Source: Candidatus Omnitrophota bacterium (GTDB taxonomy: Bacteria > Omnitrophota > Omnitrophia > Omnitrophales > Aquincolibacteriaceae). Taken from it: a stretch of DNA of 64,000 nt. The translations under genes were made by a program, and so were the position numbers. The notes under the pieces are model-generated. The model made no database searches. It worked only from the letters and a program-made list of their open reading frames with translations, and was not told the origin of the DNA. This document shows, piece after piece, positions 51,064 through 51,942 of the stretch (its first letter is position 1; every line of letters begins with the position of its first letter). The stretch lies in contig JAHFHF010000003.1 of assembly GCA_023247055.1 (NCBI GenBank), forward strand, positions 36,367 through 100,366, read 5' to 3'.

Positions 51064-51102
51064 CCGCCGGCGGGTGAAAGCCCTCCGGCGGTTGTTTTTT
51101 TG
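51064..51102 (+). terminator. Rho-independent terminator (GC stem ccgccggcggg-tgaaag-ccctccggcgg + T7), copy 1
   Basis: ~12-bp GC-rich stem, 6-nt loop and 7 Ts. Confidence 0.75.
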
Positions 51103-51195
51103 TTCCTCTCGCTGTGATACAAACGCCTTGACTATTTCATAATAGCAAATATATAATTAATTAATATTCATAATTCTTAAGCTTGACATTATAAC

Positions 51196-51211
51196 TTTAA
51201 AGTTATATTCT
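51196..51211. promoter_or_regulatory. Perfect palindrome ATAACTTTAAAGTTAT upstream of higB copy 2 (candidate TA autoregulatory operator)
   Basis: Preceded by ttgacattat (a -35-like box). Paralogous to 24481-24498. Confidence 0.5.
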
Positions 51212-51213
51212 TT

Positions 51214-51582
51214 ATGCAGAAACAAATTGTTTATTATGTTGATGGCCGTGGGTTGAATCCCGTATGGCGTTTTATCGAGTCGCTGCCGGCACAGGAAAGA
51301 GACAAGTGTCTCGAATACATTGCCTATCTCGAAGAAACCGGGGAAAACGTCCGGCGGCCTGCCGGGGATTATCTGGGTGGGAAACTCTACGAGCTAAGGC
51401 CGAAACAAAACCGCTTGATTTACTTTTTTATGCTGAGAAATCATGTGGTTCTTGTGCATGCGTTCCGAAAAAAAACGAGCGAGATCCCTGAGCGAGAGAT
51501 GGCGATTGCACGAAGTCGTAGGGATGATTTTATCCGCCGGTTTGAAGATGGGCTTGTGTACCTAGGAGGGCTGCAAAAATGA
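51214..51582 (+). CDS. higB: RelE/ParE-superfamily toxin (HigB/Gp49-like), copy 2
   Basis: About 70% identical to the copy at 24108-24476. Confidence 0.65.
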   Translation: MQKQIVYYVDGRGLNPVWRFIESLPAQERDKCLEYIAYLEETGENVRRPAGDYLGGKLYELRPKQNRLIYFFMLRNHVVLVHAFRKKTSEIPEREMAIARSRRDDFIRRFEDGLVYLGGLQK

Positions 51583-51887
51583 AACCAATCAAAGCGCCGG
51601 CTCACCGGGAACTGGTGAAGGCGTATTTAAAAGATAAAAAATTTCGCCGAAAAATCGAGGCCGGTGTTCAGAGGCTTAGAGTGATCCGGCAAATCATTGA
51701 GTTGCGGGAAGGCACAGGGCTTACTCAGGCAGAATTAGCACGGCGCATCGGCGTATCGCAGCCGTTCATTGCAAAAATTGAAAATGATGAGGCCGGCAAC
51801 TTAAGTCTGGAAACACTTGTCCGAATCGTTGATGCGCTGAATGGTGAAATTGAAATTCAAATTCGTGCTGCCAAGCGAGCTGCCTAG
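51579..51887 (+). CDS. higA: HTH XRE-family antitoxin (HigA-like), copy 2
   Basis: LTQAELARRIGVSQPFIAKIENDE. About 75% identical to the copy at 23803-24111. Confidence 0.7.
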   Translation: MKPIKAPAHRELVKAYLKDKKFRRKIEAGVQRLRVIRQIIELREGTGLTQAELARRIGVSQPFIAKIENDEAGNLSLETLVRIVDALNGEIEIQIRAAKRAA

Positions 51888-51903
51888 AAAGTGCCAGGGG
51901 CAA

Positions 51904-51942
51904 CCGCCGGCGGGTGAAAGCCCTCCGGCGGTTGTTTTTTTG
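51904..51942 (+). terminator. Rho-independent terminator, copy 2 (39 bp identical to 51064-51102)
   Basis: Identical sequence ccgccggcgggtgaaagccctccggcggttgtttttttg. Confidence 0.75.

Follow-up and report, generated by a model that had tools for sequence, protein, structure and literature searches.

A HigBA-type toxin–antitoxin (TA) operon is bracketed by two identical 39-nt direct repeats, each with the make-up of one complete intrinsic terminator, in the 64,000-nucleotide stretch of DNA analysed here (the window). We read this arrangement, T–higBA–T, as the scar of an insertion made by recombination and not by transposition, matching the class of events described as 'insertion with long target duplication', and we give this reading a probability of about 0.5. 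The repeat coincides with what appears to be a whole terminator, the operon lies in a variable island next to nagZ, and parallel duplications are found in the same interval. The host is an uncultured Omnitrophota-like bacterium.

A terminator-like repeat on either side of higBA

The repeat, T, is the exact 39-mer CCGCCGGCGGGTGAAAGCCCTCCGGCGGTTGTTTTTTTG, found on the forward strand at both 51064–51102 (T-left) and 51904–51942 (T-right). The initial annotation had reported an identical terminator at these two positions, and the two copies do match at 39 out of 39 positions and fold as a hairpin followed by a U-tract. The repeat can be extended leftward by 3 nt to reach 42 nt (41/42 identical, the mismatch being CAG vs CAA). 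Beyond this point the flanks of the two copies are unrelated and the edges are sharp. T has no further copy in the window when up to three mismatches are allowed, and none of 100 shuffles produced a match. T-left is located 296 nt past the stop codon of an orphan gene of 131 aa and 111 nt ahead of the higB ATG, and T-right is located 16 nt past the higA stop codon and 62 nt ahead of the nagZ ATG.

Each copy of T is predicted to form 13 to 15 pairs, with one C/U mismatch and a GAAA loop, and is then followed by UUGUUUUUUUG. The hairpin energies are −31.8 kcal/mol for T-left (z = −5.6) and −32.4 kcal/mol for T-right (z = −4.8). Given the G+C-rich hairpin, the U-tract on the transcribed strand, and a location where a transcription unit ends, T can be classed as a putative intrinsic (Rho-independent) terminator. 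A simple terminator scan picked up neither copy, probably because its stem rule disallows an internal mismatch. Rfam gave no match in the window at gathering thresholds; an E-value scan of 50700–51250 returned sub-threshold matches only, driven by the terminator (RNAI at 23 bits, for a cutoff of 47), and the scan of 24500–25100 returned none. In one assembly (L018), there is a single G-to-A change within T-left.

The sequence comes from a metagenome assembly, and two megahit contigs of ERZ27280021 break within higB (at 51232 and 51225 of the window). One could thus suspect that the repeat, or its join to the operon, was made by mis-assembly of the metagenome-assembled genome. We rejected this explanation, which is extremely improbable, on the evidence of overlapping contigs from separate assemblies. 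T-left is present in three other sequences (L001, L018, L019) and T-right in two (L002, L006). The contig L001 (ENA ERZ27276474) spans 47792–51841, including T-left and running into higA, with 2 mismatches that are both outside the cassette. The contig L006 (ENA ERZ27280021) is identical to the window over 51225–62417, from higB through T-right into nagZ. Together they cover both junctions, and they overlap by 617 nt inside the operon, where both are identical to the window. The edges of T are also exactly where two Logan contigs (k=31), taken from two further runs, end or begin, as a true repeat predicts.

The putative insert between the T copies (51103–51903) is 801 bp long, has a GC content of 45.2% (vs 52.0% for the window), and codes for higB and higA only. 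The higB-like gene (51214–51582, forward strand) encodes a putative toxin of 122 aa from the Gp49/RelE-ParE superfamily, which matches PF05973 at 4.4e-19, over the curated cutoff, and the HigB of PDB 6AF3_A at 1e-9; its homologues carry the name RelE/ParE family toxin. The higA-like gene (51579–51887, forward strand) encodes a putative HTH antitoxin of 102 aa, with matches to HTH_3 (1e-13), HTH_37 (1.4e-12), and, in the PDB, to HigA2 (7EWC) and HigA (6AF3_B). The toxin gene comes first, and its stop codon overlaps the ATG of higA as ATGA (51579–51582). Consensus scans revealed two promoter-like sites upstream of higB on the forward strand: TTGACT-18-TATAAT at 51128–51157, a pattern match at 11 of 12 positions, and TTGACA-17-TATTCT at 51183–51211. 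The latter overlaps a perfect 18-nt palindrome, TATAACTTTAAAGTTATA, at 51190–51207, which we presume to be the HigA or HigBA operator by analogy with the autoregulation of type II TA systems. The fold, the reverse gene order, the overlap, and the promoter palindrome all point to a HigBA-type type II TA operon. This agrees with the earlier description of a TA cassette of about 800 bp with its own palindromic operator: the 801-bp unit is a self-contained HigBA with its own putative promoter and operator.

The window contains a paralogous HigBA (copy 1, with the operon between the T copies being copy 2) on the opposite strand, at 23803–24476. An identity of about 70% had been given for this pair; the paralogue is real, but its similarity is not uniform, the toxins being 58% and the antitoxins 75% identical in amino acid sequence. 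The DNA homology between the two copies is confined to the region from about 51135 through the higA stop codon (51885–51887), thus ending about 30 nt inside the T-left side and 16 nt short of T-right. The conserved TA unit therefore stops just short of the T copies on either side. The 39-mer is absent from the flanks of copy 1. Downstream of copy 1 there is a perfect palindrome with 20-bp arms (23702–23742). The 18-nt palindrome is 83% conserved relative to 24478–24513, on the side of the paralogue, and its design recurs in homologous HigBA cassettes on two Omnitrophota-like contigs (L009 and L014). The TTGACA-17-TATTCT layout is found upstream of all three. The cassettes of L009 and L014 share this operator design and have no flanking repeats, which led us to reject bracketing by T as a trait of this TA family. 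A mobile cassette that exists in near-identical copies was likewise rejected: HigB reaches 70% identity with its best homologue, the plasmid and phage matches are no better than 37.5% identical, and the 801-bp insert has no DNA match in the plasmid collection. Because the closest relative is only 70% identical, a recent transfer of the cassette cannot be shown.

The variable island between murQ and nagZ

HigBA copy 2 is the last unit, adjoining nagZ, of a variable island of 9.5 kb (42428–52004) delimited by murQ (41498–42427, reverse strand) and nagZ (52005–53669, forward strand), as seen from Pfam matches and the gene order of relatives. The island also includes a pyruvyl-transferase-like gene, a TolC/ABC/TPR/HlyD/MacB efflux operon, a PIN-toxin TA pair, and an orphan gene for a secreted protein. 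The stretch 49200–51900 is low-GC accessory DNA, with a GC content of 0.41–0.48 vs 0.50–0.59 in the flanks. Among the loci of relatives, murQ and nagZ are side by side in three (L003, L004, L005; NagZ identity of 66–68%), from which the island is thus absent, and have other genes between them in two (L007, L008).

The closest relatives retrieved have a NagZ identity of 66–69%, and T is absent altogether from their murQ–nagZ interval. The initial annotation had suggested a search for relatives with an empty site, i.e., a single terminator. None of those at 66–69% NagZ identity has one; they show adjacent genes or other inserts instead. Neither do these relatives show two terminators around another gene, the arrangement that had been named as contrary to an insertion. 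A NagZ-anchored search of genome contigs found no relative, and the orphan 131-aa gene upstream of T-left has no homologue and thus offers no route to one. On the forward strand, the 296 nt between this gene and T-left (50768–51063) are noncoding, with two copies of a 31-nt motif and GACAG-type repeats; they contain no ORF of at least 40 aa and no promoter-like site, and are probably a 3′ UTR terminated by T-left. The conserved 31-nt motif makes a weak case for an RNA structure (seven predicted pairs, one of them covarying and three broken), and its occurrences in other contigs show no link to HigBA. On the other side of the operon, homology to relatives picks up again about 13 nt past T-right, with the conserved nagZ leader on the forward strand (51955–52004; AAAACGGGCTAACCTAGC... 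then ATG).

The interval carries other duplications next to its anchor genes. At the murQ-side border of the island, the 5′ end of murQ and the 48 nt upstream of it (42294–42475) have a second copy of 182 nt on the reverse strand (43540–43721), with 81% identity overall and 141/163 in the core, and 43530–43673 encodes a 47-aa stub, the truncated murQ′. The two copies bracket the pyruvyl-transferase-like gene. In L007, a methyltransferase gene beside nagZ lies between duplicates of the nagZ leader plus 11 codons. The murQ–nagZ hotspot thus shows three duplications in two genomes. In each of them the insert is immediately beside the conserved anchor gene and the stub or old copy is farther away, the order expected from anchor-based recombination. 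The murQ-border and L007 duplications have diverged (81–87%), whereas the T copies are identical. The former could go back to earlier events of a like kind, or to different processes.

A proposed insertion by recombination and its alternatives

An insertion with duplication of the target had been proposed from the start, and this part of the proposal is reasonable because the repeat is real, the operon is self-contained, the DNA is of low GC, and the site is a hotspot with duplicated flanks, including two parallel cases. It stops short of a demonstration: with no empty site, neither insertion over another history nor its direction is established. According to this reading, an autonomous HigBA operon would have been added just upstream of nagZ, at the terminator that closes the island-side transcription unit, in a single event leaving a whole terminator on either side of higBA. 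The most economical route would be an anchor-based recombination in which the incoming DNA consisted of higBA, T, and the nagZ leader. This DNA would pair by homology at the T/nagZ side and be joined illegitimately right after the resident T. Alternatively, a single crossover at T by a circular molecule carrying higBA and T would give an equal product. The 39-bp direct repeats should also allow the 840-bp unit to be deleted by recombination between them, a loss that the TA pair would probably select against. The predicted junctions are ...TTTTCAAACAG-T-GAGAAAAAATGCTAGCC... for the empty site and ...GCCAGGGGCAA-T-TTCCTCTCGCTG... for the excised circle. The anatomy of the locus suggests that T-left would stop transcription of the orphan gene before it enters the autoregulated promoter of higBA and that T-right would keep higBA transcription out of nagZ, leaving the neighbours undisturbed and the TA module under its own control. 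Several observations count against the insertion reading: T is missing from the closest relatives, the cassette has no relative closer than 70% identity, the two other duplications of the hotspot have diverged, other short exact repeats are dispersed in this genome (of which about 76 kb were searched for T), and a random staggered break is not expected to produce a repeat that coincides exactly with a whole terminator.

Insertions with long target duplication are known from previous work (Nobusato et al. 2000, Gene 259:99; Furuta, Abe & Kobayashi 2010, NAR 38:2428, PMC2853133). The class is defined by inserts of <20 kb without mobility genes and repeats of >30 bp, with examples of 46–47 bp, and the repeats often cover the start or the stop of a neighbouring gene, which is left intact (PMC2853133). 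The longest published duplications reach about 400 bp, and the mechanism is unresolved in the literature (PMC2853133). The locus described here has the same traits: a small insert (<20 kb) without a transposase, an integrase, or any other mobile-element gene, an addiction-type module as cargo, direct repeats of 39–42 bp (>30 bp), and an insert whose GC differs from that of its surroundings. The repeat is at a gene boundary, and the neighbouring genes are therefore intact. The published cases differ in that they concern restriction-modification genes, each with an empty-site genome, whereas here the cargo is a type II TA pair, the duplicated target is exactly one putative intrinsic terminator, and no empty site was found among the relatives retrieved. 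As for the route, anchor-based recombination, of the homology-facilitated illegitimate type, has been proposed for the effector-immunity arrays of T6SS and the displacement of Rhs C-terminal regions (PMC5361080, which cites Prudhomme 2002 as well as de Vries & Wackernagel 2002). The likeness lies in the addition of DNA beside a conserved anchor, with the older end pushed outward as a stub or copy, in the three events of the hotspot. The differences are that this is a proposed mechanism and not a sequence family, and that the leftover is here a terminator instead of a gene fragment.

Two alternatives do without an incoming operon that copies its target. The copies of T could belong to a dispersed family of terminator-like or REP-like repeats, in which case they would be independent and the bracket around higBA incidental. 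The window does contain other exact repeats—a 31-nt palindrome at 20468 and 25690, with a compensated variant in the relative L005, and a 58-nt unit at 5083–5198, with an inverted partial copy at 23038–23069—and the part of the genome examined is small (about 76 kb: the window and the extensions L020 and L022/L023). Yet these 76 kb contain no third copy of T, either with 8 mismatches allowed or with blastn-short, and neither do about 55 kb of relatives' DNA searched in the same ways. The 28-nt core of T has no exact match in three large collections, of genomes, metagenomes, and viruses (the source genome not being among them), and the sole match of T in plasmids is a chance one in Arthrobacter (E = 0.03). 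T is not a widespread element. The same searches failed to find the TA cassette with the same repeat elsewhere, which the initial annotation had put forward as a check. We also estimate that, with about 55 intergenic regions in the window, two random copies would end up in adjacent ones, in the same orientation and around a single accessory operon, in only a few percent of cases. A dispersed family is an unlikely source of the two copies. Local copying of the terminator is a minor but real possibility. Here, higBA would already have been resident with one T, and the second would have come from ectopic gene conversion, from template switching, or from a tandem duplication and a subsequent deletion, the extra copy being kept as an insulator. 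Identical short repeats 840 bp apart can come from errors in replication or repair, both copies of T have an obvious use as insulators, and the 58-nt tandem repeat, with 2 copies in the window vs 1 in another assembly, reveals active local duplication. This explanation nevertheless demands the precise transfer of exactly one functional terminator and nothing else, and it does not account for the stub, insert, and anchor that recur in this order at both borders of the island as well as in L007.

We regard as quite improbable that an enzyme made the insertion, be it a trans-acting, hairpin- or terminator-targeting transposase or recombinase whose staggered cuts on each side of T would double the whole inverted repeat, or one for which T serves as an att-like core. 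The exact coincidence of the repeat with a complete hairpin and its U-tract would fit such an enzyme. The cores of att sites, which are tens of bp long, get duplicated at integration. The duplications made by IS1630-type elements are of about 19–26 bp. These IS30-family elements, as cited in PMC2853133, duplicate terminator-like inverted repeats at insertion, and thus share with our locus the doubling of a whole hairpin on both sides of an insert; they are, however, insertion sequences, which encode a transposase and have repeats at their termini. The 801-bp insert has neither: its ends (TTCCTCTCGC... and ...CCAGGGGCAA) are not terminal inverted repeats, and we found no transposase, integrase, or tyrosine recombinase among the window ORFs scanned or the precomputed Pfam annotations of the overlapping contigs. 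The paralogue and the homologous cassettes also lack any such site. Target-site duplication by a transposon or MITE was rejected on the same grounds, and because the repeat has 39 bp vs about 2–14 bp for such duplications and the only other copy is the 58%/75% paralogue, which lacks the repeat. Integron cassettes resemble the locus in being small, in often carrying TA pairs, and in being flanked by similar imperfect palindromes. Sites of the attC type measure about 57 bp or more and have R''/L''/L'/R' boxes (RYYYAAC...GTTRRRY) and extrahelical bases. T does not conform to this description, since its hairpin has about 28 nt and one internal mismatch, and its GTTGTTT and AAACAAC are off consensus; in addition, the operon has its own putative promoter, there is no array of co-oriented cassettes, and no intI was found. 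We therefore rejected an attC cassette. The initial view of higBA as a mobile, cassette-like module is thus unsupported in the transposon or integron sense because we found no empty site, no repeat-bound copies, no inverted repeats, no transposase, no integrase, and no attC.

Implications for the spread of TA operons

The components of the locus—HigBA and a putative intrinsic terminator—are ordinary. The operon resembles other HigBA systems, such as that of Streptococcus pneumoniae (PDB 6AF3), in having the toxin first, a toxin of RelE/ParE fold, an HTH-XRE antitoxin, an overlap between the genes, and a palindrome in the promoter; it differs in being distant from the solved HigB (E = 1e-9) and in being known from sequence alone. 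The higBA pairs of Vibrio, such as those in the superintegron of V. cholerae, are cassettes that bring their own promoter and reside in accessory DNA; the operon studied here has no integron context. The most likely origin of the operon is a recombination in which the terminator was copied, an event of a known and fairly ordinary type, and the locus adds a minor chapter to the natural history of genomes without being a new system.

If insertion with long target duplication is the correct reading, an addiction module would have joined the chromosome without a transposase or an integrase and with its neighbours undisturbed, and the copied terminator would insulate the new operon transcriptionally on both sides. 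Long target duplication would then reach beyond restriction-modification genes to TA genes and would include an uncultured phylum of which little is known, and the murQ–nagZ interval would count as a hotspot of recombination in these bacteria. A broader and rather speculative proposal is that TA operons, like restriction-modification genes, can spread on their own via long target duplication, the preferred target in this Omnitrophota lineage being the hairpin of an intrinsic terminator. The 840-bp unit could then circularise and re-enter at matching terminators, with the toxin penalising its loss. Should this hold, the murQ–nagZ hotspot, with three scars in two genomes, would provide a natural system in which to study an insertion mechanism that is still unexplained.

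A duplicated putative terminator on either side of a HigBA operon

The 39-mer CCGCCGGCGGGTGAAAGCCCTCCGGCGGTTGTTTTTTTG (T) occurs twice in the window without a mismatch, at 51064-51102 (T-left) and 51904-51942 (T-right), both on the + strand, as the initial annotation had reported. No third copy with ≤3 mismatches was found in the window, and 100 shuffles gave no match either. T can be prolonged 3 nt leftward with one mismatch, to 42 nt; beyond the repeat edges the flanking DNA is unrelated on the left and on the right. Perfect repeats of at least 30 nt form only three families in the 64 kb. 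Both copies of T are predicted to form a hairpin with 13 to 15 pairs, one internal C/U mismatch and a GAAA loop, followed by UUGUUUUUUUG. The free energies are -31.8 kcal/mol for T-left and -32.4 kcal/mol for T-right (z = -5.6 and -4.8 against shuffles), and the predicted anatomy is that of an intrinsic terminator. A simple terminator scan passed over both copies, probably because its stem rule bars internal mismatches.

The window derives from a metagenome-assembled genome, and the exact HigB protein is found on a 130,639-bp NCBI/ENA contig. One megahit contig (ENA ERZ27276474) spans 47792 to 51841, including T-left; another, from a different ENA assembly (ERZ27280021), starts at 51225 and continues across T-right and nagZ past 62 kb. 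Their overlap is 617 nt, and both agree with the window across the cassette. In two further runs, one Logan contig (k = 31) stops exactly at the end of T-left and another begins exactly at the start of T-right, as expected from a genuine 39-nt repeat. The overlapping contigs from separate ENA assemblies and these contig ends make an assembly artefact very unlikely. In a further assembly, T-left carries a G-to-A change in its U-tract; T-left and T-right thus differ in at least one population.

The T copies enclose 801 bp, in agreement with the earlier description of a cassette of about 800 bp with its own palindromic operator. The promoter scan gave two sigma-70-like matches (51128-51157 and 51183-51211), the second of which contains the perfect 18-nt palindrome TATAACTTTAAAGTTATA (51190-51207). 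They precede a gene for a Gp49/HigB-like toxin of 122 aa (51214-51582; PF05973, 4.4e-19; PDB HigB 6AF3, 1e-9) and one for an HTH antitoxin of 102 aa (51579-51887; HTH_3, 1e-13; PDB HigA2 and HigA), whose start overlaps the toxin stop. By these matches, the segment (copy 2) is a standard HigBA operon with the toxin gene first.

The initial annotation had also listed a paralogous module on the opposite strand (copy 1, 23803-24476) with ~70% amino acid identity. The paralogue and its strand hold, but the toxins share 58% identity and the antitoxins 75%. DNA homology between the copies spans only the AT-rich promoter region (~51135) to the higA stop codon. The T copies thus lie shortly beyond the ends of the conserved TA unit, and both are absent from copy 1. 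The closest homologue of the copy 2 cassette among 5.8 billion clustered proteins is 70% identical. Two homologous cassettes, in other Omnitrophota-like contigs (L009 and L014), have the operator design in common with copy 2 but no repeat on their flanks. Their higBA genes are preceded by a short leader that contains AGGAG or GAGG. In both copies of the window (51206-51214 and 24476-24484), a -10-like hexamer ends only 2-3 nt ahead of the higB start codon (ATG), and a Shine-Dalgarno sequence is missing. These two features suggest that the window copies may rely on the upstream promoter-like site for transcription, or on leaderless translation.

The murQ-nagZ island and putative insertion scars

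HigB and NagZ homologues are labelled Candidatus Omnitrophica or Omnitrophota in their source records, and no close species representative was found in the genome collection. The gene 3' of T-right is nagZ (GH3, 4.8e-72), and the downstream order nagZ, NYN/YacP, YopX, PEPCK ... SpoIID is kept in the nearest relatives found (NagZ identity 66-69%). In three of these loci (L003, L004 and L005) nagZ is divergent from murQ-anmK, only 100-140 bp apart; in L007 they are separated by a methyltransferase gene, and in L008 other genes precede nagZ. In the window, anmK (40320-41429) and murQ (41498-42427) are separated from nagZ by 9.5 kb (42428-52004). This interval carries a pyruvyl-transferase-like gene, a TolC/ABC/TPR/HlyD/MacB efflux operon, a PIN-toxin TA pair, an orphan gene for a secreted protein (131 aa), 296 nt of noncoding DNA, T-left, higBA and T-right. 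GC content falls to 0.41-0.48 over 49200-51900, against 0.50-0.59 on both sides, and is 45.2% in the 801-bp insert versus 52.0% in the window. Gene order and the GC dip identify copy 2 as the terminal unit of an accessory island, adjoining the conserved nagZ.

Two other genes next to murQ or nagZ are enclosed by direct repeats. The pyruvyl-transferase-like gene (42624-43487), next to murQ, lies between copies of a 182-nt repeat (42294-42475 and 43540-43721; 81% identity overall, core 141/163) made of the first ~134 nt of murQ and 48 nt upstream. Its distal copy is a truncated murQ' stub of 47 aa (43530-43673, - strand). In L007, the nagZ leader and first 11 codons are duplicated around the methyltransferase gene (2316-2367 and 3279-3332; core 33/38 identical). 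The distal copy is joined to an L005-type intergenic region and the proximal one to an L003/L008-type leader, and these differing upstream types suggest an insert acquired from another lineage. At all three sites, the newcomer abuts the conserved anchor gene directly, with the older boundary copy displaced outward.

Several other features of the region were observed. The 20 nt preceding the nagZ start (AAAACGGGCTAACCTAGCGC, then ATG; ~51985-52007) are near-invariant in L003, L005, L007 and L008 although the proteins share only 66-69% identity, which suggests a conserved element for regulation or translation initiation. The orphan protein (50372-50767, +) is acidic and Cys-rich, with a signal-peptide-like N-terminus, and a search of 5.8 billion clustered proteins gave no homologue of it. 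Just upstream of it, the second TA-like pair (49352-49997, -) encodes a PIN_2 toxin of 139 aa and an overlapping partner of 87 aa with no Pfam match. An MbnB/TglH/ChrH-type RiPP-modification enzyme, fused or adjacent to a DUF2063/HvfC domain (36298-38136), is encoded upstream of the SSF-anmK-murQ genes and is also kept in L003.

Other repeats and motifs

A conserved 31-nt intergenic motif, TAACSGGAYGCCGTCC-N3-GGGRGASGTTAG, recurs in several Omnitrophota-like contigs, often just 3' of a gene stop. It is found in the window at 24844-24874, 50791-50815 (short form) and 50920-50950, and elsewhere in L007 (2370-2400, exactly at the insertion junction), L015 (894-924), L016 (5195-5225), L009 (~1329) and L017 (3376-3406 and ~5151, - strand). 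It has no Rfam match and no link with HigBA in other contigs. RNAalifold support is weak (one covarying pair and three breaks), which favours a sequence-specific site over a structured RNA. Twice in the window and in L009, the motif is followed 35-125 nt downstream by a further conserved element, GGTGACAGRCAC-N7-11-GGGGACAG, in which GACAG-type half sites are directly repeated (window 25000-25028, 50992-51020 and also 50836-50872; L009 ~1392-1420). A 48-aa ORF overlapping one of these elements (24909-25055) may be spurious, since its L009 equivalent contains stop codons.

The exact 31-nt palindromic repeat GTAGTGGCAATTCATGAATTGCCACTACAAA occurs at 20468-20498, in the moeA 3' tail, and 5.2 kb away at 25690-25720, after a DUF4202 gene, with the copy 1 segment in between; L005 has a variant with compensating changes, GTAGGGGCAATTCATGAATTGCCCCTAC, at an unrelated locus (395-428). 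Downstream of copy 1, a perfect palindrome with 20-bp arms, AACGGTGCCGGGGTGGTGCC t GGCACCACCCCGGCACCGTT (23702-23742), reaches -50.1 kcal/mol with its flanks and has no U-tract. A 58-nt unit forms two perfect tandem copies at 5083-5198. In another assembly of the same organism (L020), its first 32 nt were found just once (14588-14619) and the unit thus seems to be single, which points to copy-number polymorphism. An inverted 32-nt copy with 4 mismatches lies at 23038-23069, inside a TauE-family ORF (22631-23431).

Origin of the T-higBA-T arrangement

The initial annotation had read the locus as an apparent insertion that duplicated its target, consistent with a mobile cassette. This interpretation is partly supported: the architecture, the accessory island and the parallel scars favour an insertion with target duplication. 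It is weakened by the distance of the nearest cassette, the homologues devoid of repeats and the lack of an empty site: none with a single terminator was found among the relatives compared, which are too distant and have no T. A transposon target-site duplication was rejected: the duplication measures 39 bp, the insert lacks terminal inverted repeats, and neither a transposase nor another copy of the element was found. An integron cassette fits no better, since T does not reach the length of an attC or carry its boxes, no integrase turned up, and higBA has a promoter of its own and is not part of an array. The searches for transposases and integrases covered the scanned ORFs of the window and the annotations of the overlapping contigs. 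That T belongs to a REP-like or terminator-like repeat family is a live rival, given the other dispersed short repeats in this genome and a search for T that covered only ~76 kb of it. A hairpin-targeting enzyme, for which IS1630 provides a comparison (PMC2853133), could explain why the repeat coincides exactly with a single complete terminator, but nothing else speaks for it.

T-higBA-T matches the architecture of insertions with long target duplication, a class named by Kobayashi's group (PMC2853133). A simple route to such scars would be anchor-based recombination, a mechanism put forward for T6SS effector-immunity arrays and Rhs displacement (PMC5361080). Incoming DNA would pair homologously on the anchor side and be joined illegitimately on the other, within a region that it also carries, so that the recipient's and the donor's copies of that region would both be retained. 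Here, a donor allele 'higBA-T-nagZ' would have recombined into a recipient allele 'orphan-T-nagZ'; a circular higBA+T molecule integrated by a single crossover at T would give the same product. Anchor-based recombination would also explain the two L007 copies on different leader types. We give a single-event recombinational insertion a probability of around one half.

The locus is therefore a candidate insertion with long target duplication in a murQ-nagZ hotspot of an Omnitrophota-like genome, with a HigBA operon as the candidate cargo and an intrinsic terminator as the putative duplicated target. Its anatomy would shield the autoregulated TA promoter from upstream read-through, and nagZ from TA transcription. 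The parts are ordinary and the category has already been described; what is mildly new is the TA cargo and the recurrence of scars at one hotspot.
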